NCBI GenBank assembly: GCA_040876345.1
Contig: JBBDPM010000006.1
Location: 182,431 to 246,430 of the forward strand
DNA from: Candidatus Woykebacteria bacterium
GTDB taxonomy: Bacteria > Patescibacteriota > Microgenomatia > Woykebacterales > RBG-16-39-9b
Direction of reading: 5' to 3'
DNA length: 64,000 nucleotides
Numbering within the stretch: the first letter of the stretch is position 1; the number at the start of each line of letters is the position of its first letter. A model generated the notes under the pieces. It worked only from the letters and a program-made list of their open reading frames with translations, was not told where the DNA came from and made no database searches. The translations under genes were made by a program, and so were the position numbers. Positions 3,365 to 45,316 of the stretch are shown piece by piece.

Positions 3365-4132
3365 ATGGATTCGCCAATACGACAGGTGGCTGAATTGCTG
3401 AGAGCATCCAGTAGCATCTTGTTCATCACCGGTGCTGGACTTTCGGCAGACTCGGGGCTCCCAACCTACCGAGGAATCGGTGGGTTATACGAGAAGAAAG
3501 TAACCGACGAGAAGATCCCGATCTACGAAGCCCTGTCAGGTAGGATGTTCCGCGAGGATCCAAGCGTGCTCTGGAGATACCTCGCCCAGGTGGAACAACC
3601 AAAGCGCAGTGCCAAACCGAATCGCGGACACGAGGTAATCGCTCAATTCGAGAGTCGAAAAGAGCGGGTGTGGGTCTTGACACAAAACGTCGACGGTTTT
3701 CACACAGCCGCTGGATCAAGAAACGTGATTGAGATCCACGGTAACATACACAACCTGATGTGCACGTCACCATTATGCGCCTACTCTGCACAGGTACAAG
3801 ACTACGCAGCGCTCCTCGAATTACCACCGAAATGTCCAGAGTGCAGAGGAGTCATAAGGCCAGATGTGGTGTTGTTCGGGGAAGAATTACCCGAACGTCA
3901 AGCCGCGGTGATGGAACGGGAGCTGGAGCAGGGCTTCGAAGTCATCGTCTCCGTCGGGACTTCGAGCGTGTTTCCCTACATCTTCGAACCAATTCTCGAG
4001 GCGGAGAGACGCGGTATCAAAACCGCCGAGATAAACCCTGCTGAAACTCAAATGTCGCCACTTGTCGACATCTGGATTGCTGAAAGAGCCGCAAAAGCTC
4101 TAGACGCGATCTGGGAGATCATGCGGAGTTAG
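3365..4132 (+). CDS. Sir2-family NAD-dependent protein deacetylase (CobB-like sirtuin)
   Basis: GAGLSADSGLPTYRG (sirtuin NAD motif), TQNVDGFH, catalytic HG (IEIHGNIH), Zn ribbon CTSPLC...CPECRG; GGAGT RBS; GC-rich. Confidence 0.85.
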   Translation: MDSPIRQVAELLRASSSILFITGAGLSADSGLPTYRGIGGLYEKKVTDEKIPIYEALSGRMFREDPSVLWRYLAQVEQPKRSAKPNRGHEVIAQFESRKERVWVLTQNVDGFHTAAGSRNVIEIHGNIHNLMCTSPLCAYSAQVQDYAALLELPPKCPECRGVIRPDVVLFGEELPERQAAVMERELEQGFEVIVSVGTSSVFPYIFEPILEAERRGIKTAEINPAETQMSPLVDIWIAERAAKALDAIWEIMRS

Positions 4133-4663
4133 TGCGATCTTAAGCCGGTAAGGATTGAGAGCGATGTGGATGCGGGTAAGGGTACTCATCTTACTAGCCT
4201 CATACCTCGGCGGTCAGCATAGGATTCTACACTAACGTACGCGACAAGGATGTGGACAGCTTAGTCCTGTCCTCTATCCTACTGACGGCTCTAATTGCGG
4301 CGGCAACCTGGTTCGTGAAAGACCAGCAGTAACAAACCCAGCCAAGGCTGGAGGAAAGGAGGGATGTGAGACGGGAAAAGTAGATCAACCATCAGGGCTC
4401 CCAAAAGGCTTCATCCCCCAGGAGCTTGCGCGTAGAGTCCGAATCTACCGCAGGATGGGCTACAGCTTTGAGTACATTGCCGACTACGTGTACACAAAGC
4501 GCCTCGGCCGGCCGGTCACGGCTGCTCAGCTTCGCAAGTTGCTGCGCTTTCTTAGGGTGCCCGTCCGAGCCAGTAGCATTAACGGTAAACACCCGCACTA
4601 GGTGCCGCGCGAGTCCCATCCTCTCGCGGCACCCCGTCTTAGATTCCACATCCAAGCTCAAGT

Positions 4664-5581
4664 TCAGAGCCAATGTTTTTTCTTGAGAAAGACAAATGTT
4701 GCAATGAGGAAAAGAAGCATTAGGGCAAGGAGGGCGTCAAAAGCATAAGGGGATTTCTGGAAAGGCAGCGCTACATTCATACTGTATATTCCGTTTATCA
4801 ACACAATGGGGAGAAGTATTAGGTTTATTATGGTGAAAATCTTTATAACTTCGTTGCTAACTGTGTTCAATATCGCTGCATGAGAATCATTCAATCCTTC
4901 CACCACTTCTTTTTGTTCTTCAAGGTTGGTCCAAAGCTTTTCAATGTGGTCCACAAGATCATCGAAATAAATATCCGCAGCCCGCAGCCCCAATTTATCA
5001 ATAGCAGCTTCAAGATTTACAAGGACCACTCGTTGCGGGCTGATAATTTTTCGATAATTTAAAACGTTCCTTCGCTCAATCGCTATCTCTTCAACTAGCT
5101 TTGAGGATCCTCCCTCTTGCTCGAAAATTTTATCTTCCAAAATATCCAAATTTACATCAATTTTATAAAGTATGGGAAACGAGTAATCAAGAAGCGCATT
5201 AAGAATGTTATAAACTAAGTAGCTAACGTCTTTTCCAAATGTCTCACTTCTCTTTTTCTTATCATCTAGAGCGTCCTCCACCAAATTGTTTAAGGGCTTA
5301 AGGCGGCCATCGTGAAGCGTGACTACGTAGTCTTTACCCACGAACATATCTACCTCGGAAGAGATAATTTTACGGCTTCTTTTCTCAAAAACGGGAAAAT
5401 GAAGCACTATAAAAAGGTGGTCGTCAAACTCATCTATTTTTGGTCGTTGGGTTGGCGAGAGAGTATCCTCCAAAGTTAGCGGGTGAAATTGGGGGAATTC
5501 ATTGTGGATTTTCTCAATATCCCCCTTTGAAGGATGCTCAACGTCAATCCAACGAAGGCCTTCACCAATAATCTCGCGCAT
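4664..5581 (-). CDS. corA: CorA-family Mg2+/Co2+ transporter
   Basis: Cytoplasmic N-domain plus two C-terminal TM helices with YSMNV (variant of the CorA YGMNF signature) in the loop before the last helix. Confidence 0.75.
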   Translation of the reverse strand: MREIIGEGLRWIDVEHPSKGDIEKIHNEFPQFHPLTLEDTLSPTQRPKIDEFDDHLFIVLHFPVFEKRSRKIISSEVDMFVGKDYVVTLHDGRLKPLNNLVEDALDDKKKRSETFGKDVSYLVYNILNALLDYSFPILYKIDVNLDILEDKIFEQEGGSSKLVEEIAIERRNVLNYRKIISPQRVVLVNLEAAIDKLGLRAADIYFDDLVDHIEKLWTNLEEQKEVVEGLNDSHAAILNTVSNEVIKIFTIINLILLPIVLINGIYSMNVALPFQKSPYAFDALLALMLLFLIATFVFLKKKHWL

Positions 5582-6692
5582 AATAGCCTCCGTCTAAAAC
5601 TTATCTTAACCTATGAATTATACCCGTTTTATACGCATCAAAGCAAGTTGGGGTTAAAAAATGTGATTTGCGCGAGGCGGGACAAGGTAATTAAACCCAG
5701 TCCTCAACCTCGCGCAGAGTGCGGGGCGCAGTTCACAGGCTAGTGGCCCCGGAATAATCCTGGCGAGGAGCAACCCTTGGAGCCGACACGAAACAGATCG
5801 GGTCACCCCTCGCCTTGGTGGGGACAGATCTTGTAGCCCAGGGGAGATAAAGGCCCAATAATCTGCCCGGTGAGATCACATCCTGGGGCTCCTAGGTCTC
5901 AGAAGTGATCTTCACCTACGGATCAGTGTTCCTCTTTTGGGGCAGTTCTACCTCTCGTGGAGAGGAGTGAGGATCACTAACCCGAGAGCGTGGGTCGGAG
6001 GGCGGTTATACGGTGTCCCCGCGCCACCTAACAACCCACTTCCCCAACAAACTGCGGAGAAAGCTTGCAGCTTCCTTGCAGGTGCTCTCAAATTGATCTC
6101 CCGCCAATAATTACTTATATCTCAATTAAAAAGCTACCACAGGAAAAAGTCAATGATTAGGTTGTTTGGTTGGGGTGTGGGTTTATTTATAACAAGGTGG
6201 TTAAACAAATAGATCGAGGGCAAGCTTCCTGGCGGAGAACTTGCCCCCAAGCGGTCTTTCCTTGACCCAATTTCCTCCGCAACCGTTATGTCACACTACT
6301 TGACTTCCGTTCCATCTATCAGGATGAACGGTTGTGTAACGGCTGCGGCGGCTACGGCGGGCGGGCTAGGTGGCTACGTTGAGGACGAATGCAACGCATA
6401 CCACACCTCCTCTCCTGTGTGATGTCCCAGCGAGAGTGGAGGGGAGATTAGAGCGGTGGCTAAAGATCCCTCTCACTGAGTCGATCTTGATGCACGTAAT
6501 TCGCGGTCAACCTCCTACCGAGAAGTAGTTGTGCTTCCCTGGCTCGGTTCAATGAGGTTCATCTCTCGATGGGCGCACTCCTCCTTTCATCTGCTGCACG
6601 CTTGCCCTTCCTAACAAGACACGCTGCAGAGGGTCAACCTGACTTTACACTTATATTTCTTATGATTATGAAGATCAACGAACAAGATAAAT

Positions 6693-7136
6693 TTAAGAAA
6701 GTTTCTTGCGGACGATGCTGGAAACTGCACCCATGTCTGCTTTCCCTTTGAGGTCTTGGGAAAGCTTACCCATCACCTTACCCATGTCGGCAATTGTAGA
6801 AGACAAAGTTTCTTTAATTGCAGAGACAACCATTTTTTCTATTTCTGAATCTGATATTTGTTCAGGAAGATATTCTTGCAAAATAGCAAGTTCTTGCTTT
6901 TCTTTTTCAGCTAAGTCCTCTCTTCCCCCTTGACTGTAACCCTCAATCGATTCTTTTCTTTGTTTCACTTGTTTTTGGAGTACTTCTAGCACCTCTTCAT
7001 CAGAAAGTTCTCTCCCCTTTTCAATTTTAGCGTTGTGGGCCGCGGAAACTAACAAACGCAGTGTAGAAAGCCTCAATTCGTCTTTCTCTCTGAGAGCTTT
7101 TTTTATGTCTTCTTGAATTTTTTCTAAAAGGTTCAT
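6693..7136 (-). CDS. yqeY: GatB/YqeY domain protein
   Basis: 147 aa; typical YqeY helical-repeat sequence (LRLSTLRLLVSAAHNAKIEKGRELSDEEVLEVLQK...). Confidence 0.75.
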   Translation of the reverse strand: MNLLEKIQEDIKKALREKDELRLSTLRLLVSAAHNAKIEKGRELSDEEVLEVLQKQVKQRKESIEGYSQGGREDLAEKEKQELAILQEYLPEQISDSEIEKMVVSAIKETLSSTIADMGKVMGKLSQDLKGKADMGAVSSIVRKKLS

Positions 7137-9278: not shown

Positions 9279-10241
9279 TCAAGAACCTTCTGGCCAGACT
9301 CGCGCCATCGGTATCCAACTCTCTGGAGCTTTCCGGATCTGCTCCTCAATTGGAACAAGCATGGCCATCGTTAGTGAAACTGGGTTGTCTTGATACTCGG
9401 CAGGATCGATTGGCGGGTGAAGTGTTGCCCTATATCTCCCCGCATCTTGCCTCTCCCAAGTACCCGGAATTACAAGACAACCTTTTGCCTTTAGGGCGAT
9501 CTTTGCTGCGCCGGTGGGCATTAGAGTAGGGCGGCCAAGAAAGGTCATTTCCGCCCCAGTACCCTGGATATCCCGATCGATCAGCATGACAACCACACCG
9601 CCATCACTGAGGCGCCTTCGCATCTCGACTAAAGTCTGGCGACTTAGGGGTCTAGCCTTGACACCTCCGCAGTTCTGAAGCTCCTCTGCCCTAGCCGCAA
9701 GCCTAGGACTTGGTATAGGCTCTATTGGGCAAAGCAGATCTACCCCCTCGGCCACCAGCTTGTGAGGAATTCTGTAGACACCCGCGAAGTGAGCACCGGC
9801 TATCAGCACTCCCCGCCCGGAAGCCTGAGCCTCTCTGAGGTACTCAATGCCCTCAAGTTGCACATCAGACCGGATACGCTCAAGATCTATCCTGGGAATC
9901 AGACCCATGTCGACCCATGTTCTTGTCGCCGCCCTTTGCGAGGCTCGAGCGCTCCGGCGCCAGGTCGATGGATCCTCAACTCCCTTCCCCTGCCAAACAC
10001 AGGCCATGTTAGCAGTTGTTTCACGGCGAACGGAGGGCGAAAGCCACCAAGTAACCTCGGCTACCACCGGGCAAAGAACTCCGTAGGACAATAGGCTGGG
10101 CAGGTATTCCACCAGGTACGAGAGTAGGTAGATGGCCCAGTTTCGCCAGGCAGCTGTCTGCCTTTTGTTTGCTCCTATCTTCACAGGCAATCCTCCCTTC
10201 CAGAAATGCGTGTCTTTCAGAAAGTTTGCTTGCCTGTGCAA
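9279..10241 (-). CDS. Lysophospholipid acyltransferase superfamily protein (HtrB/LpxL/PatA-like), GC-rich
   Basis: 320 aa; overall similarity to lipid A / PIM late acyltransferases (N-terminal membrane anchor, AGAHFAGVY region). About 57% GC versus about 40% in neighbours. Confidence 0.5.
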   Translation of the reverse strand: MHRQANFLKDTHFWKGGLPVKIGANKRQTAAWRNWAIYLLSYLVEYLPSLLSYGVLCPVVAEVTWWLSPSVRRETTANMACVWQGKGVEDPSTWRRSARASQRAATRTWVDMGLIPRIDLERIRSDVQLEGIEYLREAQASGRGVLIAGAHFAGVYRIPHKLVAEGVDLLCPIEPIPSPRLAARAEELQNCGGVKARPLSRQTLVEMRRRLSDGGVVVMLIDRDIQGTGAEMTFLGRPTLMPTGAAKIALKAKGCLVIPGTWERQDAGRYRATLHPPIDPAEYQDNPVSLTMAMLVPIEEQIRKAPESWIPMARVWPEGS

Positions 10242-12642: not shown

Positions 12643-12705
12643 GATTTTGGGGTTCGGTGGCCCCATCCTTCAGCTCGCCAGGATAGGGCCCACCTATAAG
12701 TACGC

Positions 12706-13110
12706 TCAGACGTTCGCGAAGAACCTGAGCACGCACTCTTCTGCTTCGGCAAGATCACTCAGTGCCGAAGGTGTGTCACCACTGGCTATGTGTCGATCGG
12801 CGCTCACAAGCAGAGTCATTACCTGGTGCCAGCAGATGCGATGAAGACCCGCAAGCTCACCAGGAACCACCATTCTGCCTGGGCCGGTCTCCCAGCTAAT
12901 CCGATACCAACGTTTGGCCATTTGAGCAAGCCGCCCTCTTTCGGGCTCTGTGAGGCTAGCCTTTTTCAACAACTCTCGGGCGTGCTGTACACCGCTGATT
13001 ACCTCGATCGAGTACTTAATCATTACCTCTCGGTAGCCTGGCCCGATGAGTAAGCGTCGAAGAGCCCAGACTCCTAACACCGCTGCTGCCACGACTAACA
13101 GTTTCCGCAT
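12706..13110 (-). CDS. Hypothetical secreted/membrane protein on GC-rich island
   Basis: N-terminal hydrophobic signal MRKLLVVAAAVLGVWAL; about 60% GC. Confidence 0.35.
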   Translation of the reverse strand: MRKLLVVAAAVLGVWALRRLLIGPGYREVMIKYSIEVISGVQHARELLKKASLTEPERGRLAQMAKRWYRISWETGPGRMVVPGELAGLHRICWHQVMTLLVSADRHIASGDTPSALSDLAEAEECVLRFFANV

Positions 13111-13252
13111 TGCGAGCCCTCCTTTACTTCGAACGTCTCAAACCCTCCCGCTTGTCAGAAAATCACTAGATCTCTTGACTTAGTAAGAAATATACTAAAT
13201 GGAAAAAGGAAAGCAAATTATTCTCCACCTTTGCTACCGAAGCTAGAAGTAA

Positions 13253-23212: not shown

Positions 23213-23425
23213 GGTGCTATTCTAACTTGAAATTGGCAAAGATTCAATAAAGGGGTGTGGGCAGGGATTGCCTCACAGCTCGCCAATTTCCCCCGTGAAG
23301 GTCATACCGCTCCTCCTCACTCCCGTTATCAGATAACCGCCGCTCTCCTTTTCCGACACATGAACCGCCCGCACTCTCTTGACCTCCACAACCACACCGT
23401 CTGGCACTACCGAGTATGAGTCAAT

Positions 23426-23794
23426 CTAGCCATTACTTGGGCTGGTATCTATCGGCTTTTCGAAGTAGTAGGTTAACCCGCCAGTCGTGCAATCGCCACA
23501 CGCCAGTGTGACTGACCAGACTGCGTAAAGAGTACCGTCGCTCCGCAACTCGGCGGTGTTCCAGAGCGGCGGCGCTGATCTCGAATCGAAGAGCTTCGGT
23601 TCCACCCCTTCAGGATCGAAGGATAGGGCGAGGCTCTTTGTCAGATCCTCCGAGAGCTGCGGCACGCGGATTTGTTCCACTCGCTGAACCTTCTCAGGGT
23701 ACCGCTCCAAGTTAAGGAGCGTAACGAGTGCTAACGGTATCAGAATGGAGAGGGCCAGAACAGGACCAATCCCACCCAAGCCTGTGGGTTTCAT
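23426..23794 (-). CDS. Hypothetical membrane/secreted protein on GC-rich island
   Basis: N-terminal TM GPVLALSILIPLALVTLL; about 58% GC. Confidence 0.35.
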   Translation of the reverse strand: MKPTGLGGIGPVLALSILIPLALVTLLNLERYPEKVQRVEQIRVPQLSEDLTKSLALSFDPEGVEPKLFDSRSAPPLWNTAELRSDGTLYAVWSVTLACGDCTTGGLTYYFEKPIDTSPSNG

Positions 23795-23812
23795 ACTGCA
23801 TAACCGTCCCTC

Positions 23813-23989
23813 CTACTGTCTTCTCTGACCGGGTGAGTTGCGAGCGCGGTTTTGGTGTCTGTCCCGCCGACTCACCCGAGCTTGTGTGTCTCTCCTGTTG
23901 TTGCCGTTGGTAGTCCCCCGATTCGGCTTCTGGCCCCTGCGACCCCTCTTCGCCGGAACCTTCAGGCCACCTTTCTTACGCTTCTGCAT
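23813..23989 (-). CDS. Small highly basic peptide (58 aa), hypothetical
   Basis: GGAGG RBS immediately upstream of ATG at 23989; MQKRKKGGLKVPAKRGRRGQKPNRG...; 19 nt upstream of the 23794 gene. Confidence 0.3.
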   Translation of the reverse strand: MQKRKKGGLKVPAKRGRRGQKPNRGTTNGNNRRDTQARVSRRDRHQNRARNSPGQRRQ

Positions 23990-24071
23990 GGAACCTCCTT
24001 CTCCTTCCGTGCTGGTTGTTAGCTTGCGCTATTATATTGTTAACTGGGATTTTTTGTCAAACAAAGGGGAA

Positions 24072-27259: not shown

Positions 27260-27527
27260 AGGGACGGCGAACCCCGTGAAAGTTTAACTGAAGTGGGGCC
27301 CCTCCTTTTCGCATTCCATAATATCAGCGGAATAAATCAAAAACAAGAGGATCAAAATAGGTCACTCTGTAGGATGTGTGGAGGACCGGGGCGCGCTAGG
27401 ACGGTTGTCCGCAAACAGCGCGTCCCGGTCCTCAAGGCGGGGGAGGGAATGTCTTTCTAGTTGTGCCCCTACCCCCACCAGTACCATGATGTTGGTGTGT
27501 TCCAGGTTGGCGCGGAAGTTTGCTGCT

Positions 27528-27851
27528 TTACTGCTTTGGGGCAGTGTAAATGGCGTGCGGACCATCTAGTCCAGCACCTTCCCTACCAACCACGATGATC
27601 TCCTCGCCCCTTTCGGCTGCTTCTGTGAACCTACTCAATAGACCCTTGCTCCGCCATTCGACTTCTGCTCTAGAGTCTATCAGGTTATAGTGAGTTGCTA
27701 CCCTACCATCTGGAAGAGTCACTCTACTCCACACCCGCGCAGGATGAAGAGGGGCTTGAAAGTAGCGGACCGCGCAGGTTCCTTCTGGCAATTCAACAAT
27801 GAGAACGCCGCTCTTCTCATCGCTAAGTTGCGGTGGTTCGTCTGTGCCCAC
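27528..27851 (-). CDS. Hypothetical protein (GC-rich island), in frame with the upstream ORF across a single TAA
   Basis: GTG start directly after the TAA of 27852..28169 in the same frame; protein-like composition. Confidence 0.25.
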   Translation of the reverse strand: MGTDEPPQLSDEKSGVLIVELPEGTCAVRYFQAPLHPARVWSRVTLPDGRVATHYNLIDSRAEVEWRSKGLLSRFTEAAERGEEIIVVGREGAGLDGPHAIYTAPKQ

Positions 27852-28169
27852 TTACCATCGCCTCCCATATCCATAAACGGCCATCTGCCGCGCTCCAAGA
27901 GCACCACCAACTCGAGCGTGTGTGCTCGCCAAGATCACTCTTGTCCACTCATTTTGTGCCGCCGCGACGCTTCTCGCCATCGCTGCGTTGAAGCTCTCGT
28001 CTCCCTCCTGGTGCACTTCGTTGAAGTGAGTCCACACCCCACTACTGTGAGGAAAGTGGTATGTCGGTGGTGGCGGCCACAGTATACCACCACGATAGCG
28101 GATACGGTCTTTCCTCCCATCCACCGAGGAAACTACAACCCTGCCGCGTCCACGATTCCTGGATGCCAA
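27852..28169 (-). CDS. Hypothetical protein (GC-rich island)
   Basis: 105-aa ORF; possibly the N-terminal part of a disrupted 211-aa gene. Confidence 0.25.
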   Translation of the reverse strand: MASRNRGRGRVVVSSVDGRKDRIRYRGGILWPPPPTYHFPHSSGVWTHFNEVHQEGDESFNAAMARSVAAAQNEWTRVILASTHARVGGALGARQMAVYGYGRRW

Positions 28170-28654
28170 CTACGAACCTCCCTTTCGTTCGCGCTGATCC
28201 CTACCTGGGGTCCTTCCCGATCAAGGCTTTAATAGCCCGATTTGGATCTCTCAAAAAACAAATCGCGCCCTTCAAGCGCTTTATTAAAATTATAACGAAA
28301 AATCCCCAGGCGTTCAACAACTCAAGCTTGGGTTCGGCGAACCGCGGTAAGAGTTTCCATTCTCTTGCCGCGGCTCAGTCCACGCATCATCCCCAACTAA
28401 CGGATGTGCCCTTCCGCCAATTAGGAGACTGGCTGCCGACGAGAAGCTAATCTGACAGCCTCATCAACAGCCCAGTCTCCGATCTTCCTTGGTGCTGCAA
28501 CACACAGAAAGAAGCTCGGATCTTCCTTCCATGGGCTTCATGCGATGGATTTCCCCTCCCCATCTCCGGTCTCTTTGATCCGCCAGAGCTGTTTTTGAAC
28601 CCTCAAAAACAGATCCCGCTTATCAATCTTTGTTTTGTATATTACACCTCTCTG

Positions 28655-28712
28655 TCCAAAAAATCCAAAACCCCGAGGACTTATGCAGGCAATGCCCACG
28701 GCCTCGGGGTTT
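28655..28712 (-). terminator. Rho-independent terminator (minus strand)
   Basis: 11-bp perfect inverted repeat AAACCCCGAGG/CCTCGGGGTTT followed on the minus strand by TTTTGGATTTTTTGG, 27 nt after the stop of the 28739 gene. Confidence 0.5.
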
Positions 28713-28738
28713 GGCAGCTGACTTCTCTCCCACGTTCC

Positions 28739-29152
28739 TCACTCTTTCACGCCGATTGCAACCATCCCACCCGGCAATAGAACGGCGCAGGTCTCGTCCT
28801 TCCTCGTCTTCCGAAGAGCAAACGCCGCCACACTGACCAAGTCGTCGCCATTGGCCATTGTCGGCACCTGTGCGACTAGCAAGCACTTGAAGACGCCTGG
28901 CCCAGGAATCTCGATCGTGTCGCCGATCTCCATTTCCCGATCGTAGCTCGCAAACCGTACCCGTCGGCCGGTTATAGTGATCGAGCTAACACCCGTCAGT
29001 GGCTTGACCACATGAAGGCTTGACCGGTGCAAGCTTGGACTGGTCTCACCAGTTCCTTGCAAAAGCCTAGTTAAGGGGCCCATCTCCACCCTCCTTTCCA
29101 ATGTATTACTACTCTCACCTTGAGCAGTCCAACCTGCCTTCAACAAAAGCAA
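28739..29152 (-). CDS. Hypothetical protein (GC-rich island)
   Basis: ORF with downstream terminator; possible shorter start at MGPLTRLL. Confidence 0.35.
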   Translation of the reverse strand: MLLLKAGWTAQGESSNTLERRVEMGPLTRLLQGTGETSPSLHRSSLHVVKPLTGVSSITITGRRVRFASYDREMEIGDTIEIPGPGVFKCLLVAQVPTMANGDDLVSVAAFALRKTRKDETCAVLLPGGMVAIGVKE

Positions 29153-29236
29153 GTTGCACTAATCAAGTAAGGATCGACGGAGCCACACCTGGTGAAACAC
29201 CATGCGTGGCTCCGCAGAAGTGACCTGGGGTCTGGG

Positions 29237-29599
29237 TTAGCCGGTTGCGGGCATAGGCGCGACAGCGATCCTCGTACCGCGGGCGGTGGTCTCAATAATG
29301 ACGGCCACCACCTTGCGGAGCTGCTCGAAGCGTTCGAGAAGCTGGCGAACGATGTCTGGCTGCGTCGTACAGCTCACCTCGACAACATGCTCGCATCGCA
29401 GCCCGTTGCCCTCGAAGACGATGCCACCACCCACTTCCAGGGCGCCCTTCTTCTCAGGCTCCGCGAAGACGACCGTCAGACCTCCCATAGTGATGGATGC
29501 CCCCGGGCCCTGCCGATTCACTTTCAGTGCCAAACGTTCCCTCCTCCATGAGTTACCGGAGACTAGCGCTGCGGGTCCTTCTACCCCACATCTCTGCAC
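29237..29599 (-). CDS. Hypothetical protein (GC-rich island)
   Basis: Protein-like composition, AT-rich promoter region upstream (29600-29800). Confidence 0.35.
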   Translation of the reverse strand: MQRCGVEGPAALVSGNSWRRERLALKVNRQGPGASITMGGLTVVFAEPEKKGALEVGGGIVFEGNGLRCEHVVEVSCTTQPDIVRQLLERFEQLRKVVAVIIETTARGTRIAVAPMPATG

Positions 29600-29815
29600 T
29601 CCGAAGGCTTTGACTAGCCCAAGCTACCTTTTAGGTAATCCTAAAAAACAGTTTGCACAAGTCAAACATTCTGTATTTTACACTAATTTGTAAAGTAATA
29701 TGCAAAAACCTAAAATTCCCCCCAATCTTTAAACAAACTCAGCCCAAATAAGCAAGAAGGGCAGGGGAATATTTCATCTCTCTGCCCTTCCGGGAATCCT
29801 TTCCGTAGAGTGTGG

Positions 29816-29974
29816 CTACCTTGCCTTGTCAGCGCCTTCCATCAACCCTTCCACTTTGCTTATTGCATCCATGGCTGGGTCTAGGAAGACAGGGAGCGCG
29901 AAAACGGCGATGATGACTGCTAATGCTAGCAGCAATCCAACCGTCAACAGTCCCCCTGAGGAACCACTTCTCAC
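29816..29974 (-). CDS. Small membrane protein (52 aa)
   Basis: GGAGG then 8 nt then GTG; single TM GLLTVGLLLALAVIIAVFALPVF; below ORF-track cutoff. Confidence 0.35.
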   Translation of the reverse strand: MRSGSSGGLLTVGLLLALAVIIAVFALPVFLDPAMDAISKVEGLMEGADKAR

Positions 29975-30116
29975 GGTATTCACCTCCAGAAAAAGTAGTG
30001 TCGAATTTCTTCGACCCTCGACTGAAATCCACCTTCCAGAAGATGGCCTTCAGTTGAGCCCTGGGGGAACACGCATCCGAAGATTTGTGTCCCCCAGGGC
30101 GGCGGCAGGAAGTTGT

Positions 30117-30710
30117 CTACTGGCTGGGGGCGGCGGTCGGCTGGACGGGTTTGTTGAAGCGCCTCCGCAGTGCGGAAAAGAACGCCTTCAACCCAGTCCG
30201 TATTCCATACCTGTACCGGTGGACGACCACACCCGCCCCAAACGCGACGATACTTGCGGCTGCGAGGGCGGTTCTCCAGTGTGGCCAATCGTTGTCGGTT
30301 GGGACCCGAACGGCCCGAACCACAACCGGTTGACCGACCCACTGCCACGGAATCTCGAGCTCCACACCCGGCAGAAGTGGGCAATTCCCGAAGGGAATCC
30401 CCGTCTGCTGGGCAGCCCGAGAGATCGTCTCGACGTTGTTGCCGGTATAGAGCAGCTGATGCCACTCTCCCGGCCTACCAAGCGCCGTGGCGATCCTCGA
30501 GCATGTATCGTTGTCACCGACGACCCACGTGCCGCCGGGCGGCAGCATGCCGCCGAGCACCTCGTCCTCCTGGTTCTCCTGCGCACTCGCGCTGTGGGCG
30601 AAAGTGAACAGGATGATGATGAGCGCTACTAACCCCACGATCAGCGCGAGTAGCAGGGCTCCATTCCCTCTCTGGTAACCCGGTTGGCGCATGTAACCTC
30701 CTTGCTGCAT
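30117..30710 (-). CDS. LysM-domain membrane protein
   Basis: N-terminal TM, LysM-like WVVGDNDTCSRIATALGRPGEWHQLLYTGNNVE, C-terminal TM. Confidence 0.45.
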   Translation of the reverse strand: MQQGGYMRQPGYQRGNGALLLALIVGLVALIIILFTFAHSASAQENQEDEVLGGMLPPGGTWVVGDNDTCSRIATALGRPGEWHQLLYTGNNVETISRAAQQTGIPFGNCPLLPGVELEIPWQWVGQPVVVRAVRVPTDNDWPHWRTALAAASIVAFGAGVVVHRYRYGIRTGLKAFFSALRRRFNKPVQPTAAPSQ

Positions 30711-31109
30711 ACTTCCTGCCTGCCGAAACTAATTACCAGATATCCTGATAGCCAGATTCGGCAGACAAACTTAATTTTCAAAGAACGAAAGCTCTTATCT
30801 TACAGCAATGGACATTATCTGCTAAATCACCCTGGTGACTCGGCCTCAAATGCCCACGAAATAGTACCTATTATATCAGAAAATGCTGGAAAAGTCAAAT
30901 ACTATAAGTCGCTACATAACTTCGAGACCAGCGAGCTTCTTGTAGCTCAAGGAGTGATCGCAGAGCGCGAAGCGATCTATTTATCAGGTATTCTCGCGCC
31001 TTGCGCTAGCCAACTTTTGGCTAGATAAGGACTCTTATTGAAGGGCTAGTAGTGGTGGGGTGGCGCGCTTCCTCAGATGCTACGCGCCTGCCCCAAAATG
31101 ACCTCCGCC

Positions 31110-31583
31110 TCACTTCTCCTGAGCTTCTCCCCTGATCGCGATGGCGTAGAGAAGATCGTCGACTTGCCGCTCACTCTCCGGGTCCGGACCAGTCTGCCCT
31201 ACCTCGAGATAGTTCCTCAGCCTCTGCACTCGAGGCGCTAAGTCCGCATCCGTAACACCCTTTCCCAGAGTAACCGCAGTGCTCAGGTATCGGAGGACGA
31301 GGAACACTCGCTCCCTATCGAGAGCATCGTAGTAATGGTAAACCCCATCTTCCCGATCCGCCTCGATCATCAGCATCGTGCGATCGAAGACACCAAGCGC
31401 CCAGTTCGCCGTCTTTTCATCAAACTGCAACTGGATCAAGTGACCAACGTTGATTGCTTCGCTTTCTAGGCGGAGCTCCTCCCTGAGTTGGATGTTTTCC
31501 TGCCGCGTGTCATGCCAGGCAACCCCGAAGATAATTGCGCTGGCAGTTGTGATTGCCGCCAACGCTGATAGGAACAGGCTCAT
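31110..31583 (-). CDS. Hypothetical membrane-anchored protein (GC-rich island)
   Basis: N-terminal TM MSLFLSALAAITTASAIIFGVAW, 157 aa. Confidence 0.4.
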   Translation of the reverse strand: MSLFLSALAAITTASAIIFGVAWHDTRQENIQLREELRLESEAINVGHLIQLQFDEKTANWALGVFDRTMLMIEADREDGVYHYYDALDRERVFLVLRYLSTAVTLGKGVTDADLAPRVQRLRNYLEVGQTGPDPESERQVDDLLYAIAIRGEAQEK

Positions 31584-31960
31584 CGTTGTTTCCCTCCTTC
31601 CGTGAACCAGTCCCCGCCGTCCAGGACGTTTGAAAGAATATTAACGCTTATGCACTTAATGGTCAAGAAATTCATTAATAGAAAAATGGTGAAAAAAGCT
31701 GTAGGCGGCGCGTGCTCCGTGAGGAAACTCGCGCCGCACCAAACGTTGCTGGCCAGGTTTTCAGAAGGTAGTTCCGTCAGACGCACCTTCGGGGACCGGA
31801 GTCGGCGTTTCGTACGCGGCGCAGGGATCGAATATAGGTCAAGAGATTGGTTTGGCTACGTTTGGGGCACTTCTTCTTTAGTCTGAGGCTTTGTCCGAGC
31901 TCATCCACTTACTTAAATACTCTTATTTACTTTTATTCTTCGCTGATTTATACTTTTGTC

Positions 31961-32197
31961 ATGAATTTCCGCGTTTTTATTACTCAAGATGAAAGTGGTG
32001 TTTATGTAGCCTCTGTTCCAAGCCTTCCGGGCTGCCACAGTCAAGGTAAGAGCGTTGAAGAAGCCACTAAAAACATTAGGGAGGCTATTACTGGGTGGAT
32101 CGACGTGGCTAAGGAATTTGGTGATCCAATACCTTCTGACGATACGGAAGTAATTGAACTAAACGTAAAAGTTGCCGAACCTGCAACATCTCAATGA
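31961..32197 (+). CDS. hicB: Type II antitoxin HicB (UPF0150)
   Basis: MNFRVFITQDESGVYVASVPSLPGCHSQGKSVEEATKNIREAI is the classic HicB/UPF0150 pattern; start set to the internal ATG. Confidence 0.8.
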   Translation: MNFRVFITQDESGVYVASVPSLPGCHSQGKSVEEATKNIREAITGWIDVAKEFGDPIPSDDTEVIELNVKVAEPATSQ

Positions 32198-32415
32198 AAC
32201 TTCCAGTCGTATCTGGTAACGAGTTTGTGAAACGAGTGAAGAGTAAAGGTTTTATCTTTGAAAAACAAGAGGGCTCGCACATGATGTTGCGCCTCACCCA
32301 ACACCCATTCACTAAATTATCCGTACCGAGACATAAAGAACTTAGTAAAGGCCTGCTGCGTCGTCTATTACGAGATGCGGATATTACAGTTGAAGAGTTT
32401 GGAAAGCTCAAATAA
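32194..32415 (+). CDS. hicA: Type II toxin HicA (mRNA interferase)
   Basis: MKLPVVSGNEFVKRVKSKGFIFEKQEGSHMML: YcfA/HicA fold with conserved GSH; 4-nt overlap with hicB. Confidence 0.8.
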   Translation: MKLPVVSGNEFVKRVKSKGFIFEKQEGSHMMLRLTQHPFTKLSVPRHKELSKGLLRRLLRDADITVEEFGKLK

Positions 32416-34485: not shown

Positions 34486-34606
34486 TTAAATATTAACAGT
34501 TCTGTAAAGGATTAAAACCCAACTCTCTTGACTAGCCGTTGCTTGCACGCTAAAATGTTTGCCGGAAACGGCATCGTAAAGAGATCTGGAAGAGCAAGGA
34601 GGATCT

Positions 34607-35278
34607 GTGGTCCAGCAAAGCATCCCTAAAACTCGACGGCAAGACCTTTTCGTTCGCAACGGCAACACTGCCCCCACAACTCCAACACTGCTACAGCTGG
34701 CGGGGGAACCTGACGGACTCCGCGAGGACCTTTTCACCGATTTCTGGAGGCCATGGATCGCTTTCGGATGCGGAGATGGACGTTGGGTAGCCATAACGGA
34801 TTTCATGGTGGCTGCTCGGAACGCTGGCGGTACTGATCAACCCTCACCACTGGGCGGAATTCGCAAAGTGGCGGAGTACCTACGGGCAGGTGATAAATCA
34901 GCCTTAAGGCTGGTCGTGGACGAGATTGACTTCGCTCATGATCACCACGGAGTAGTTGCAGTTCAACTCATTGCTCACCCACTCTGTGGAGCGACAAGAG
35001 TTGAGGTCTGTAAAGCAATTCCTGAGGCAAGCTCGATCTACAGGAGCCCAACGAAGGGCGATCCCCAACTCTTTTACTCCACCATGATGGCGGAGCTGGG
35101 AATACAACGGTCTGACTTCGACAAGGTGCGGCGCTGGATATTCCAAACCTTCCCGTTCATCGTCGCTGTCCAGTACCTCAGAGTCACTAAGTATCGTCTG
35201 ACCCTCTTCAGCGACCACGAACTCGCAGTCGCAAAGGCTGTGCAGGAACTCAAGTCGCAAGGCAACTGGACGGAGTAG
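34607..35278 (+). CDS. Hypothetical protein (223 aa) on GC-rich island
   Basis: Protein-like composition; followed by a 13-bp perfect hairpin at 35296-35327. Confidence 0.35.
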   Translation: MVQQSIPKTRRQDLFVRNGNTAPTTPTLLQLAGEPDGLREDLFTDFWRPWIAFGCGDGRWVAITDFMVAARNAGGTDQPSPLGGIRKVAEYLRAGDKSALRLVVDEIDFAHDHHGVVAVQLIAHPLCGATRVEVCKAIPEASSIYRSPTKGDPQLFYSTMMAELGIQRSDFDKVRRWIFQTFPFIVAVQYLRVTKYRLTLFSDHELAVAKAVQELKSQGNWTE

Positions 35279-35295
35279 AGGTAGGTAGCGTGGGG

Positions 35296-35327
35296 GCATG
35301 GTGTTTTTAGCGGAAAACACCATGCCT
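35296..35327 (+). terminator. Hairpin terminator after the island gene
   Basis: GGCATGGTGTTTT-TAGCGG-AAAACACCATGCC perfect 13-bp stem. Confidence 0.35.
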
Positions 35328-35552
35328 CAGGTCCGTACCTGTTTAGATTGAACAAACCAAAACCCAAAACTTTTACTTCGTTTTTATACCCATCAAAGAA
35401 AGCAGCGACCCCACTTTTGCAGCCTCAATTCCCAGAACAGCAGCCAAAGACATACTATGGGCGGAGATCAAGTTTGATCTCCTGTCAATGACAAAATTTC
35501 CGATCGTGAAAAGTGTCATGACTAGGTATAGATTTTGGACTCTTGGTAAAAA

Positions 35553-38356: not shown

Positions 38357-41300
38357 TTAACTCCCCCAATTAGATAGCAGTATTGAGAGATCAAAGATAT
38401 CTACTCTACCACGTCCATCTAGGTTAGAGGCTTGATCAGTAGTTCCCCATTTGGAAAGAAGGAAGGAAAGGTCAAAGATGTTTACCTTCCCGTCACCATC
38501 TAGATCCCCTATCTTACCCTTTCTTACTCCAGTATTCGAGGTAGTCACTGTTAGGATAGACGATACACCTTGGTTAGTAGCAGCATCATAGGCTTTGGCC
38601 TGGAGGGTGTGTTTGGCATTGGTGTACTTGGTTGTGTCCCAAGAGTAGGTGTAGGAAGAGGTTGTGTCAGAGCCTACTGGTTTACCATCAATGAAAAACT
38701 CTACCTTGGCAACCCCGACGTTGTCAGAAGCAGCAGCTGATACGATCACTGTCTTAGAGACTGTTGCTCCAGAAGCTGGTGAGGTGATCGAAACAGTTGG
38801 TTTAGCGCTGTCTCCGGAAGGCGGAGGGGATACATTACTCACCGTCACAGTAACTGAGGCTGTTGCATTCATTCCAGCAGCATCTGAAGCTTTAGCTTTA
38901 AGGGTGTGGGAGCCATTAGTTAGTTTAGTGGTATCAATGCTACAGGTATATGTAGAAGTAGTGTCTGTACAGGTAGCGGTACTGGCATTGTCGATGAAGA
39001 ACTCTACCTTGGTAACACCCACATTGTCAGAAGTAGTTGCCGCCACGTTGACTGTGCTAGATACTGTGGCCCCATTGGCTGGGGAGGTGATTGAGACAGT
39101 TGGGTTAGTGGTGTCTCCAGGTGGTGGTGTGGTGCCACCTGAGGAGACAGTTAGTACTAGATTGTCAAAGTTAGTATCCCAACCATTGGAGCTCATGACC
39201 GTCACATTCGTACAGGGGGTGATCCAACCAGTCTCAATAATTGATATTGTCTTGGAAGGTACACTTACTTGTTTATCTGGATTACCAGAACACTTCAAAG
39301 TGACTGTGCTGGAAGAGCCTCCACCGTTATCAGCATCAATTGAGTCAAAAATAGCTGTTTTTAGTATTGTAAAGGAGGCTTGGGTAAGACTTGCTCCATT
39401 AAAAGAGATACTGTTGCTATTAAACTTATCAAAAGGACCCGAGAGTACCCAATTCCCTGTTCCCCAGTCGATGAGACCAGAGGGGTGCTGACCAGAAAGT
39501 GGAGGGTTTCCGGAAGAAACGGTAATGGTATTGAAATCTACGATCACTTTCTGGGGAGGGTTGTCTACTTCAACTTTTACGGCGCTACTTGTGGAGGAGT
39601 TCCCAGACCCATCCGTAGCCTTGGCCGTAAGGGTGTGATCCCCGTTAGTAACACTGGTGGAATCCCAACTTATGGTAAAGATACCGTTAGTTTGCGTGTC
39701 TGTCTCTTTGATAGGGCTACCATCTACCAAAAGCTCTACCTTGGAGACTACCGAGTCATCAGTAGCCGATACACTAACATCCACCTGTCCCCTAGCAAGA
39801 CCGTTATCTAGAGGTGAGATAATACTAACACTTGGCGGACCTAAATCTCCGGCCATTCCTGTCGGTATGAAGCCCGTGTCGTTGGTGACTAGGACTTTAT
39901 CTATCTTTGCACCAGCTTCTCTACCGATGATGTTAAGGGTGTGAGTACCCTCTGTGAGGTTTAGGGATATCTTGCTGCTAGTGTTCCCATCTTTATGATC
40001 TACCCATTGGTAGGAGCCAAAGGTAACTCCACCATTACCTACTATAATGCCAGGTTTAGTATCAACTCGTAGCCAAAAGGAGTCGCTACTTGCATTAGCG
40101 GCTAACATCCTTGTCCAAATATTGTAACTACCCGCCTCTGGAACTGAGAACTGTATTGTTGAAGAGCCAGTGTTAGTTGGCAGGGGTGGGTTAGAATTGC
40201 TGGTGCTGATCGTTATGTTAGCCGAGTTTTTGTTACCTAGCTTATCAAATGCTTGGGCCATTAAGGTGTGACTGCCATCAAAAAGCTCAGCTGTGTCTAA
40301 AGTAAATTTGTATGGAGAAGCAGCTGGAAAGGAGTGGATAATCCCATCCACGTAAAATTCTACGAGGGCAATACCAGAAGCGTCCGATGCTGAAGCTTCA
40401 ACATTTATTGTATCAGAAACCGTCGCTCCATTGGCAGGGCTGATGAAATTGACTGTTGGTGGTATAGTCTCGGGTGGGTCTTTTTCGTCAATATCGCTGG
40501 CGCTAGTACAGCCAGGGTCGGCAGGGAAATCTATCTTGCCATCAGAGTCATTATCGATAGTGTCTGAACAGGCAGGACCAAGGGGTGTAGCTGTGCTCCA
40601 GATATGGACATCAAAGAAGGTAGGCCAGATATTGCGGAATCTCACCTCCTTTACACCTTCCGGAATTGGCACCATGACCGTACCCAAATATGTTTTTGTA
40701 GCCTGCTGAAGAGTTGGGGTATGCCAGGTATTAAACCCCTCAACATCAAGAGCATATTGCGGTATCTTATCAACTTTGGCAAAACGGAGATACGAGTTTG
40801 GTGGCGAAGGTCTTTCAAAATTTACTGTGGCGCTTAGGCTTGGATCCTTAAAGATTGAATTGGCGCGGCACGTATTATCCCTTTGTTCTAAACAGCTGTG
40901 AATCACCGTAAAAGGAATCGCCGGGGAAAGACTTACGTCATCAATGTGCCAGGTATTCTCATGCATGGGCTCACACGGATCGTCTATACAAGAGCCTTTA
41001 CCACTATTGTAAGCAAGCTGCATAAATTGCACGGTTGCGTTGGTCCAGGAAAGCGCTGGAATATCATCATTGAAAAAACAGTGGTTGTATTCCGGCATAC
41101 AAAGTGAGAGATGAGTGCGGCTCATTTTCATCACAAACAAATCCCTGCGTGTGGCTGAAGGCGTGAGGAATGAATTCCATCCACTAGTGCGATTGTGCAA
41201 GACATTAACGCCTCCATTGAAAACCTTTAAATTCCAAAGACCATTTCCCAGCATTTCTATTCCAAGAGATTCTGAAGGAGGTCCTTGGTCATCAAAAAAG

Positions 41301-42049
41301 GGGTACATAAGAGTGCGGTCAAAGTCACGATGACCACTCTGGTAACCAGGGGTGAGTACTACTGCTGGCCATTCCCTATCACTGCCTCGCTCAGTGCTCA
41401 TGCGCCAGCTAAAAGTTGCTTCTCCTTGGGACCAATCAAGTAAGGCCGCTGGAGTCATAACCACAACTGGGAAGTTTTCAAACCCACCAGCAGACGTCAT
41501 AATATGGTTTCGGCAGTTAAACATCATATTTTCCCGCATATCAACCATATGGGTAGCCGGCGGCGGTCCACAATCAGAGCCGTGTTGCGCCATGATATGT
41601 CCTTCGGTCCCAAAATTATCACTATTAACATCCATTGACCAGTTTTGGCGACGGTACATTGATTCTGGCGCTGCCGGTGTTCCATCGAAGGTGTCTAGAA
41701 AGGAGTTGCCACTTGTAGCCTGGAGGACTTTGGTAGGAGATTCTCCTTGGGCTGTATTAGTAATTGTGGAAGAAACATATTTCCCTCCCGAAGCATTGGT
41801 GTCATTGCCCGCTGTCATTGGGGCTGTAAGTTGGCCGTTCTCCCCTTCTAACCAGATCTTGGAGATTACTGCTGCTCTTCCGCCAAGGTTTACTCCCTTG
41901 AAAGCAAGTAATACTGTAGCCGGAATTGCTACGAGAATTAATACGGTGGCTAGAACAACTAAGTAGTCTCTGCCTTTATATGGGGGATTAATAGATTTAC
42001 GGTAGTGTTTGAACAGATCAGTGGCTCTCATAGGTAGAGAAAACTTCAT
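38357..42049 (-). CDS. Giant surface protein (1230 aa): N-terminal anchor, unknown 500-aa domain, multiple Ig-like domains, C-terminal double dockerin repeat
   Basis: N-term MRATDLFKHYRKSINPPYKGRD plus TM; repeated Ig-like modules (TVSITSPANGATVS...VGVTKVEFFIDG...YSWDTT); C-term DLDGDGKVNIFDLSFLLSKWG...DGRGRVDIFDLSILLSNWG. Confidence 0.75.
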   Translation of the reverse strand: MKFSLPMRATDLFKHYRKSINPPYKGRDYLVVLATVLILVAIPATVLLAFKGVNLGGRAAVISKIWLEGENGQLTAPMTAGNDTNASGGKYVSSTITNTAQGESPTKVLQATSGNSFLDTFDGTPAAPESMYRRQNWSMDVNSDNFGTEGHIMAQHGSDCGPPPATHMVDMRENMMFNCRNHIMTSAGGFENFPVVVMTPAALLDWSQGEATFSWRMSTERGSDREWPAVVLTPGYQSGHRDFDRTLMYPFFDDQGPPSESLGIEMLGNGLWNLKVFNGGVNVLHNRTSGWNSFLTPSATRRDLFVMKMSRTHLSLCMPEYNHCFFNDDIPALSWTNATVQFMQLAYNSGKGSCIDDPCEPMHENTWHIDDVSLSPAIPFTVIHSCLEQRDNTCRANSIFKDPSLSATVNFERPSPPNSYLRFAKVDKIPQYALDVEGFNTWHTPTLQQATKTYLGTVMVPIPEGVKEVRFRNIWPTFFDVHIWSTATPLGPACSDTIDNDSDGKIDFPADPGCTSASDIDEKDPPETIPPTVNFISPANGATVSDTINVEASASDASGIALVEFYVDGIIHSFPAASPYKFTLDTAELFDGSHTLMAQAFDKLGNKNSANITISTSNSNPPLPTNTGSSTIQFSVPEAGSYNIWTRMLAANASSDSFWLRVDTKPGIIVGNGGVTFGSYQWVDHKDGNTSSKISLNLTEGTHTLNIIGREAGAKIDKVLVTNDTGFIPTGMAGDLGPPSVSIISPLDNGLARGQVDVSVSATDDSVVSKVELLVDGSPIKETDTQTNGIFTISWDSTSVTNGDHTLTAKATDGSGNSSTSSAVKVEVDNPPQKVIVDFNTITVSSGNPPLSGQHPSGLIDWGTGNWVLSGPFDKFNSNSISFNGASLTQASFTILKTAIFDSIDADNGGGSSSTVTLKCSGNPDKQVSVPSKTISIIETGWITPCTNVTVMSSNGWDTNFDNLVLTVSSGGTTPPPGDTTNPTVSITSPANGATVSSTVNVAATTSDNVGVTKVEFFIDNASTATCTDTTSTYTCSIDTTKLTNGSHTLKAKASDAAGMNATASVTVTVSNVSPPPSGDSAKPTVSITSPASGATVSKTVIVSAAASDNVGVAKVEFFIDGKPVGSDTTSSYTYSWDTTKYTNAKHTLQAKAYDAATNQGVSSILTVTTSNTGVRKGKIGDLDGDGKVNIFDLSFLLSKWGTTDQASNLDGRGRVDIFDLSILLSNWGS

Positions 42050-42133
42050 TGGTAACCAAAATTTATAATATTAGTAATTTGATTATCCTGTCTCCCAACA
42101 AACAAGTCAATAGTACTAAAGTACTAAATCGTG

Positions 42134-45286: not shown

Positions 45287-45316
45287 CCTTGGCCATTCCT
45301 AAAAATTTAGACAAAA

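Follow-up and report, generated by a model that had tools for sequence, protein, structure and literature searches.

We analyzed a 64,000-nt stretch of the genome of a Candidatus Woykebacteria bacterium (GCA_040876345.1, contig JBBDPM010000006.1, positions 182,431 to 246,430 of the forward strand), here called the window, with a focus on the gene-free gap that separates yqeY from corA. The chances are about even that this gap consists of two tandem noncoding RNA (ncRNA) genes, named unit A and unit B, which lie on the minus strand, that of yqeY and corA, and are independently transcribed. Each unit would have its own sigma-70-type promoter, a GC-rich RNA of 440–460 nt composed of many stable hairpins and a hairpin terminator, and both would belong to a variable cluster, with 1–4 units per genome, that occupies the interval from yqeY to the corA promoter within a single Woykebacteria subclade. 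Unit A would be the window's copy of the sole unit type that persists across this subclade, named group X, and unit B a lineage-specific partner RNA. The units are devoid of coding signal, show an excess of strand-biased foldability, carry oriented promoter- and terminator-like signals and, for group X, persist in synteny. We infer transcription, RNA ends and function from the sequence.

Table 1. Features of the yqeY–corA gap in the window and the corresponding interval in related loci
Feature	Position	Strand	Remarks
Gene-free gap, corA–yqeY	5582–6692 (1111 nt)	−	JBBEDR010000006.1 366871–367981; no gene in the annotation used
corA	4664–5581	−	Downstream flank of the gap
yqeY	6693–7136	−	Upstream flank of the gap
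Promoter-like site, unit A	6650–6678	−	TTGATC-17-TATAAG, found by a regular-expression scan; 15 nt downstream of the yqeY stop; putative
Unit A body, ~440 nt	6201–6643	−	Predicted RNA; window's member of group X
Conserved motif ACTTCTCGGTAGGAGGT	6510–6526	−	CUUCUC/GGAGG mini-hairpin, like a Shine-Dalgarno site paired with its complement
Group X core, ~90 nt	6386–6478	−	Helix P1, purine block GGAGAGGAGG, then ATGCGT
Helix P1	5' arm 6476–6470; 3' arm 6436–6430	−	5' arm GTGAGAG, 3' arm CTCTCGC; loop ends in CUCCCCUCC
Terminator-like end, unit A	6201–6248	−	16-pair hairpin 6248–6216 (GGGGGCAAG...CUUGCCCUC), then tail GAUCUAUUUGUUU; from folds
Promoter-like site, unit B	6125–6153	−	TTGACT-17-TTTAAT, preceded by A/C-rich CCAACCAAACAACC; putative
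Unit B body, ~460 nt	5656–6118	−	Predicted RNA; chain of 5–6 imperfect hairpins of 45–65 nt each
Terminator-like end, unit B	5656–5716	−	Hairpin 5716–5669 (UGCGCGAGG...CCUCGCGCA), 7-nt spacer, U6 at 5661–5656; from inverted repeat and folds
corA promoter-like site	5617–5646	−	TTGCTT-18-TATAAT; outside the units, sets their downstream limit
L006			Large gene-free gap after yqeY, 819 nt
L007			Large gene-free gap after yqeY, 2137 nt, then a DUF1003 gene
L008/L009			Large gene-free gap after yqeY, 1404 nt
L090			Large gene-free gap after yqeY, at least 1050 nt
L096			Large gene-free gap after yqeY, ~570 nt
L104			Large gene-free gap after yqeY, at least 651 nt
L091–93			yqeY and corA nearly adjacent, 34 nt
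L097/98			yqeY and corA nearly adjacent, 129 nt
L094			yqeY–corA interval of ~170 nt
L016, L054			yqeY–corA interval of ~170–240 nt

The gene annotation used is that of a metagenome-assembled genome (GCA_040881185.1, contig JBBEDR010000006.1, 586 kb), in which a position equals 373563 minus the window position, on the opposite strand; SRR27977663 also contains an identical corA contig. The gap contains two GC-rich pieces, 5621–6130 (53.5%) and 6211–6650 (55.2%), separated by a spacer of ~80 nt with ~34–44% GC around 6110–6200, and its neighboring genes have a GC content of ~35–44%. An earlier inspection of the letters alone (the sequence-only reading) had described the segment 5745–6600 as one GC-rich block without open reading frames (ORFs) and as a candidate large structured RNA or decayed element. 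Its figure of about 56% GC is overstated, as computation gives 53.3%. No ORF of 60 aa or more is indeed found within 5745–6600 in any of the six frames, the longest being one of 57 aa at 5937–6110 on the plus strand; the two ORFs that reach this length, 5534–5743 (69 aa) and 6569–6751 (60 aa), both on the plus strand, touch the edges of the block only and arise from the antisense reading of its flanking genes. The accompanying expectation that random long ORFs should occur holds only mildly: in 1000 dinucleotide shuffles, the longest ORF averages 92 aa, and 5–7% of these shuffles also lack an ORF of at least 60 aa.

Searches for a protein trace were uniformly negative. With stops masked, the six frames match no Pfam family at E ≤ 10, and a search of 5.8 billion protein clusters with their concatenate is likewise empty at E ≤ 10; as this search would also catch spurious ORF calls in close relatives, its null result covers these too. 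Comparison of the homologous gaps with tblastx reveals no shared peptide, apart from the promoter region next to corA in L006 and L008, two of the related loci listed in Table 1. A recoded coding region was ruled out: every frame holds all three stop codons, so that no alternative genetic code yields an ORF, and the longest run with any single stop read through is 133 codons (at most 116 in the minus frames). Blastn against 50,697 phage and 72,556 plasmid records yields no match to the block, the window contains it only once, and a 16-mer query on viral contigs returned five exact matches, which we took as chance. The suggestion of a decayed element or frameshifted pseudogene is thus unsupported, given that neither Pfam, protein, phage nor plasmid matches were found.

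The region as a whole (981 nt on the minus strand) folds better than its shuffles, with a z-score of −4.5 on the plus strand and −5.7 on the minus strand. Sliding windows of 200 nt place the signal inside the gap alone and give it greater strength on the minus strand; z-scores lie near 0 in the flanking genes, save for one window at the start of corA. Taken separately, unit A (minus strand, 6195–6645) has a predicted folding energy of −163.1 kcal/mol (z −2.5), equaled by none of 100 shuffles, and its plus strand a z-score of −0.9 (15 of 100 shuffles as good). Unit B (minus strand, 5650–6112) reaches −201.4 kcal/mol (z −6.0), again equaled by none of 100 shuffles, and a z-score of −4.0 on the plus strand, with z-scores of −2.6 to −4.2 in the 200-nt windows across 5600–6100 on the minus strand. 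The same property recurs across four genomes: all ten of their units of at least 340 nt have sense-strand z-scores of −2.4 to −12.7 (rough values, 20 shuffles each), six coding controls, four of them GC-rich (among these the SIR2 and acyltransferase genes and an ORFan), range from −0.9 to +0.6, and the sense z-score is below the antisense one in 10 of 11 units.

The complementary segments to which the sequence-only reading had drawn attention are partly confirmed. CCGTTA (6283–6288) does pair with TAACGG (6337–6342) in the predicted fold, but the two lie ~50 nt apart and the pairing is local, not long-range, while GCTTGCAG (6063–6070) and CTTGCAGG (6075–6082) are a 7-nt direct repeat and not complements. 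Longer-range complementarity does occur between 6033–6052 and 6164–6183 (20 nt, 80%) and between 5688–5709 and 6168–6189 (22 nt, 82%). No repeat families are present in the gap beyond chance pairs of 9–16 nt, nor any CRISPR- or ToxI-like array, and the only tandem repeat reported by Tandem Repeats Finder is the 21-nt CGGCTACGG, in 2.3 copies. Unit B contains seven GATC sites versus 1.8 expected; a role as Dam or origin signal was considered and set aside, the sites being judged a by-product of palindromic hairpin arms.

Promoter- and terminator-like signals are arranged in the same direction as the foldability bias. The A/C-rich layout seen ahead of unit B, "AACAAACAA ... TTGAC", also stands ahead of two other units, L007_4 and L008_3, and ahead of corA promoters in relatives. 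In the gaps, sites of the form TTGAyn-17-TAnnn[T/G] recur every 370–560 nt, almost all on the yqeY strand, with a density over seven gaps of 1.55 per kb in sense and 0.26 per kb in antisense versus 0.10 per kb in these loci outside the gaps. A promoter-tool scan of the L007 gap finds six sites versus 1.8 ± 1.3 expected, five of the six on the sense strand, and that of the L008 gap is not significant. Strong GC-rich hairpins stand at the ends of the units and are followed by a U-rich tail at roughly 9 of 12 ends; the U-runs are canonical in four cases, near-canonical in about five and missing in two. The unit A terminator is only near-canonical, as its U-run is interrupted. At the distal side of the cluster, a TTGnnn-17/18-TATAAT site equivalent to that of the window keeps its distance to corA in relatives, whether the insert is present or absent.

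The proposal of a candidate structured RNA made by the sequence-only reading is supported by foldability, strand bias, promoter- and terminator-like signals, the lack of coding signal and the conservation of a part of the block at this locus in diverged relatives, but the block most probably divides into two units and is not one RNA of 850 nt. A single structured RNA of 850–1000 nt over the whole block, which we rate as the least probable of the readings weighed here, would be consistent with the z-score of the whole 981-nt minus strand and with the complements between the two halves (6164–6189 versus 6033–6052 and 5688–5709), and the interrupted U-run of terminator A makes some read-through plausible. 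However, the AT-rich spacer with its strong hairpin, U-rich tail and TTGACT-17-TTTAAT site divides the block, no large-RNA family is matched, and in relatives the same unit types stand alone (L096) or are combined differently (L006, L007, and L008), which indicates that the halves are separable modules.

No known RNA was recognized in the gap. With Rfam 15 at the gathering threshold, the only matches of the window are four tRNA genes on the plus strand (62894–63738), and a permissive scan of 5400–6900 gives chance-level matches, the best with 18.6 bits versus a threshold of 90. The candidates that had been named for the block, i.e., GOLLD, ROOL, HEARO/omega RNA, group I and II introns and RNase P, have no Rfam 15 match even at E ≤ 10, and neither do OLE, raiA, tmRNA, SRP, 6S or the M-box. 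ARAGORN finds no tRNA or tmRNA gene in 5400–6900, and the gaps of L006, L007, L008, L090, and L096 contain nothing in Rfam at the gathering threshold or at E ≤ 5. The sequence-only reading had held that a structured RNA would be refuted by the lack of an Rfam match, the lack of a conserved structure among homologs and matches exposing a frameshifted pseudogene: the first two hold only in part, with no Rfam match and a weak conserved structure in homologs, and the third clearly does not. A type I toxin-antitoxin locus was also considered and rejected, as the short ORFs linked to a Shine-Dalgarno (SD) site on both strands are neither hydrophobic nor conserved and the promoter-like sites are nearly all on one strand.

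The YqeY protein of the window has no homolog above 69% identity in the protein collection, and comparisons could thus be made only between deeply diverged lineages. A large gap at the same site was found in the window, L006, L007, L008, L090, L096, and L104, with pairwise YqeY identities of 61–82%; these insert-bearing lineages span most of the YqeY diversity of the clade, and their large gaps usually continue into corA. The six Woykebacteria-like lineages other than the window hold 1–4 units each at this site. In several sister lineages, only a short interval parts yqeY from corA, which makes the insert clade-restricted and dispensable. One locus, L094, was initially taken for a large-gap locus of 1.3–1.7 kb and was discarded, because an N-run at ~6480–6580 had left its corA uncalled. 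A search of genome contigs for CorA returned only two distant genes (29–31% identity). Among the 80 loci of a metagenome scan based on YqeY alignment, nearly all had 43–58% identity and no gap, and the single locus with a gap (L010) is identical to L006.

Such variability raises the possibility that the insert is nonfunctional, a fast-decaying relic of foreign or ORFan DNA at a variable site, whose signals are fossils or chance. We regard this as unlikely, with the following in its favor: the insert is missing from several sister lineages, where yqeY and corA are only 34–170 nt apart; the gaps vary in content and in length (570–2137 nt) and have almost no similarity between lineages; the ORF depletion is marginal; and the Pfam-less, ORFan GC-rich patches of the window at 12643–13252, 23213–24071 and 27.3–31.9 kb fit a repeated acquisition of higher-GC DNA. 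A relic of coding DNA is nevertheless difficult to reconcile with six frames that left no trace in Pfam or in 5.8 billion sequences, and chance with a strand-biased foldability above shuffles in every lineage, of which the GC-rich coding controls show none, and with promoter-like sites that are co-oriented and enriched 15-fold. In addition, blocks of group X persist at YqeY identities of 61–71%, at which, in our expectation, neutral DNA would be randomized, and streamlined genomes of the Candidate Phyla Radiation (CPR) are unlikely to keep 1–2 kb of junk at one site in at least six lineages. CPR bacteria are reported to have streamlined genomes of ~1 Mb with little spare DNA. Together with this, the maintenance at one site, between lineages with YqeY 61–82% identical, of 0.6–2 kb of highly foldable and promoter-equipped noncoding DNA suggests a function.

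Homology between units emerged after the gaps were split into units and compared by local alignment with shuffles. Unit A aligns with unit 3 of L007 (z 9.2) and is also linked to unit 2 of L008, while L096 and L090a align with the group X units of the window, L007, and L008 with z-scores of 7.9–10.9. A separate link, outside group X, connects unit 2 of L006 with unit 3 of L008. Group X units have in common the motif CTTCTCGGTAGGAGG, present once or twice per unit: that of the window (6526–6510) is identical at 17 of 17 positions to L007 7677–7693, and variants of the 17-mer are found in L008 (twice), L096 (twice), L090, and L104. They alone are enriched in GGAGG, with 3–4 copies versus 0.7–0.8 expected (z 2.8–4.0; four copies versus 0.7 in unit A). 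The triplet GGA occurs 15 times in unit A versus 9.3 expected (z 2.4) and is not enriched in unit B or in most other units. A CsrB-like GGA sponge is thus disfavored as a general explanation, since it is GGAGG rather than bare GGA that is enriched, and in group X only.

The core of group X measures 87–93 nt in all five lineages. It consists of the P1 hairpin, with a CCCCUCC-type tract at the end of the loop, followed after a short spacer by the purine block GGAGnGGnG and then by ATGCGT. In a hand alignment of six sequences, P1 pairs at seven of seven positions, with changes on both sides at five of them, as counted by script. The pyrimidine tract can also pair with the purine block, and this helix and P1 are mutually exclusive. 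The core of the window scores 28.9 bits with nhmmer when the window is part of the training set; in leave-one-out searches of 524 kb, those of L007, L008, and L090 are the top non-training matches (E 0.03–0.13). For the window copy, there is little evidence from sequence: because its core was missed in the leave-one-out searches, its assignment to group X relies on the 17-mer, the alignment at z 9.2, the order of the motifs and synteny.

The SD-like purine block and ATGCGT are kept in five of the six cores. In unit A, they open a short ORF at 6399 (AGGAGG, 6 nt, ATG, 15 aa, MRCIRPQRSHLARPP). Overall, the peptides started at ATGCGT share only their first 3–4 codons, have lengths of 5–35 aa and lack the conserved ATG in the L104 copy. 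Each unit could be read as an mRNA for peptides of 10–50 aa missed by gene callers and databases, a very unlikely reading in our judgment. It draws on the GGAGG enrichment of group X, on the acceptable SD spacing at window 6399 (15 aa), L008 7394 (26 aa), and L008 7120 (24 aa), on one frame that by eye crosses the 17-mer in three lineages (..LLGRR..) and stops 16–17 codons further on, and on the small uncalled ORFs with good SD sites in other GC-rich patches. It conflicts with the finding that no peptide is conserved across lineages, matches a database protein or is hydrophobic or signal-like, as expected of toxins or secreted peptides, and a highly structured transcript of 450 nt far exceeds the need of a 15-aa ORF. 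Moreover, the conserved islands are identical in nucleotides amid scrambled flanking codons, which fits an RNA or DNA motif; a motif at the RNA level is therefore favored over a protein.

The same elements would suit a cis-acting leader or attenuator, in which unit A, and perhaps unit B, is transcribed toward corA, and the tiny ORF at 6399 or alternative helices set termination versus read-through. The units immediately precede corA and share its orientation; the SD-like block and ATGCGT in five of six group X copies start ORFs of 5–35 codons that begin with Met-Arg/His; the 3' arm and the pyrimidine tract can pair with the 5' arm or with the purine block, as in a switch; and the A/C-rich AACAAACAA stands ahead of the −35 hexamer in several units as well as in corA promoters. 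We nonetheless consider this arrangement distinctly unlikely, as corA retains its own promoter at a fixed distance whether or not the insert is there, and the group X unit of L007 precedes another unit and a DUF1003 gene instead of corA. The ORF is also poorly suited to such a task: its ATG is not conserved in L104, its peptides have only the first 3–4 codons in common with lengths that vary sevenfold, and the SD-to-start spacing is poor in several copies. Finally, neither the M-box nor any other riboswitch model is matched.

A number of observations weigh against the interpretation of the gap as two ncRNA genes with unit A in group X. The sequence similarity between gaps is very low, to the point that plain blastn finds almost nothing, several sister lineages have no insert at all, and the block matches no Rfam family. 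The covariation in P1 comes from a hand alignment of six sequences and is not reproduced by MAFFT with RNAalifold: whether whole units or the core are aligned, MAFFT mis-registers the 5' arm of P1, and RNAalifold then pairs the pyrimidine tract with the purine block (seven pairs) with a covariation term of +0.24, which is no support. The cores of the window and L096 were not recovered by leave-one-out nhmmer in the 524 kb. Unit B shows no similarity to other units or to the remaining window by local alignment and nhmmer and, having no homolog, its structure is backed by thermodynamics only; one of its hairpins, GGCGAGGGG...CUCCUCGCC, resembles P1, and a paralogy with group X was rejected, as nhmmer gives it no support. 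Both −10 hexamers of the window depart from the consensus at a critical position (TATAAG and TTTAAT), and both terminators are noncanonical. The built-in scanner calls no promoter or terminator for either unit: it misses the promoter of unit A because the −10 hexamer there ends in G, the match of the unit B promoter is weak because position 2 of its −10 hexamer is T, and the terminators escape on account of their long loops or spacers. Finally, the genome holds further GC-rich patches that resemble acquired ORFan genes. As most such patches have this appearance, GC-richness by itself is weak evidence for an RNA, and the case for the two ncRNA genes rests on foldability, strand bias, oriented signals and syntenic persistence.

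If the two units are ncRNA genes, the conserved SD-like and anti-SD-like tracts of group X and its two competing helices suggest a role in base-pairing or switching. Group X RNA may act through these tracts on the ribosome-binding sites of target mRNAs or, in a second option, may alternate between the two helices, of which the tracts permit one at a time. We tentatively propose, as a possibility that we hold to be somewhat doubtful, that group X is an ancient and hitherto undescribed class of large ncRNAs with paired SD-like and anti-SD-like tracts acting on translation or the ribosome, within a cluster of 1–4 separately transcribed structured RNAs of 350–500 nt that a subclade of ultra-small CPR bacteria would maintain at a fixed site, in which the others, including unit B, would be rapidly evolving partners.

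Screens of long GC-rich intergenic regions of AT-rich bacteria by the Breaker laboratory (GC-IGR/DIMPL) have been designed for the discovery of structured ncRNAs (PMC8632094, PMC11109978, PMC8723152). Like GC-IGR candidates, the present gap is an overlong intergenic region with a GC content above that of its low-GC genome, no ORF and stable predicted folds. In contrast to the GC-IGR motifs, which were accepted only after covariation in many homologs, only six diverged copies of unit A and no homolog of unit B are at hand, and the units accordingly stay candidates. Judged against Rfam 15 and the literature, they are a candidate new family within the bacterial structured ncRNA genes; a literature search on ncRNAs of CPR bacteria or Woykebacteria found nothing specific to these RNAs.

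Bacterial ncRNAs longer than ~300 nt are rare, and where a function is known, it has proved sophisticated. With OLE, GOLLD, ROOL, HEARO, and raiA, the units share a length of several hundred nucleotides, a GC-rich, multi-hairpin and noncoding nature and their own promoter and terminator, here predicted; they differ in being restricted to one narrow CPR subclade instead of many phyla, in a far less conserved primary sequence and in forming a tandem cluster of unrelated modules. Listeria LhrC1–5 and RsaE/RoxS of Firmicutes are tandem small RNA genes whose C/U-rich loops pair with SD regions. The units recall these in the head-to-tail arrangement of RNA genes, each with its own promoter and terminator (predicted here), and in the conserved CCUCC-type tract in a hairpin loop of group X; unlike these RNAs, which measure ~100 nt and are paralogous copies, they are 4–5 times longer and have no similarity among the units of one locus. 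A further parallel is offered by the control of Mg2+ transporter genes, as in Salmonella, where the mgtA gene is controlled by the leader peptide MgtL. Like mgtL and the M-box leaders (ykoK, RF00380), the units are located upstream of a Mg2+/Co2+ channel gene and display a short ORF after an SD-like block and predicted alternative helices followed by a terminator-like end. They differ from Mg2+ leaders in that no M-box is matched, the corA promoter is downstream of the units, the unit does not always neighbor corA (L007) and the ORF is absent in L104.

Should transcription and covariation be confirmed, group X would represent a new CPR-specific RNA class and unit B an example of fast-evolving large RNAs, and both units would be starting points for RNA biology in so far uncultured organisms; should they not be confirmed, the locus would be merely a variable acquired spacer.

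Further features were noted around corA. In relatives, the 5' untranslated region of corA carries a conserved hairpin of the form (A/G)RCACATC ... GRTGTGYC followed by a U-run, which is attenuator-like and has no Rfam match (L006 7195–7245, L008 7700–7830, L096 ~4510–4555, L094 5540–5590, and the leaders of L016 and L054). The corA leader of the window (~27 nt) does not contain this hairpin. On the other side of corA, another GC-rich gap without genes (4133–4663, 532 nt, GC 0.56) extends to a SIR2-family gene, and its folding moderately exceeds that of shuffles on each strand (z −2.7 and −2.2). Relatives have 0.8–1.4 kb between corA and cysS with only small Pfam-less ORFs. The SIR2-family gene (3365–4132) and a gene of the lipid A biosynthesis acyltransferase family (9279–10241) have a GC content of 0.54–0.57 versus ~43% for the genome; as they are as GC-rich as the block, a mosaic composition produced by horizontal acquisition is suggested.

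Other GC-rich stretches of the window differ in their content. The uncalled gap 12643–13252 contains a 134-aa ORF on the minus strand (12706–13110) with an AAGGAGG SD site, a hydrophobic N terminus and a terminator hairpin, which is likely a missed gene. In the 859-nt stretch 23213–24071, where no gene is called, a TTGACA-17-TATAAT promoter is predicted from its sequence, together with a strong SD site ahead of a very basic 58-aa ORF and a 122-aa ORF on the minus strand (23426–23794) with a membrane-anchor-like N terminus; these are probably ORFan genes. The only genes called in the 4.6-kb island 27300–31900 (GC 0.53–0.58) are five small ones without Pfam domains, and many ORFs overlap there on the two strands. 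The island adjoins a HicA/HicB toxin-antitoxin pair (~31960–32415) and is possibly acquired or mobile. Between topA and guaA, a segment of ~1.07 kb (34486–35552, GC 0.54) has as its sole called ORF a Pfam-less one of 136 aa on the opposite strand. The gene orientation switches at 55500–56400, from nearly all minus on the left to plus on the right, around a GC-rich and gene-poor stretch (55681–56290) that could be a replication origin. Finally, four very large genes at 38357–50568 (1230, 1050, 697, and 1033 aa) have internal repeats of 50–148 nt in common, with 60–78% identity, and look like a family of paralogous surface proteins; those that are annotated contain Big_7/PKD-type domains.

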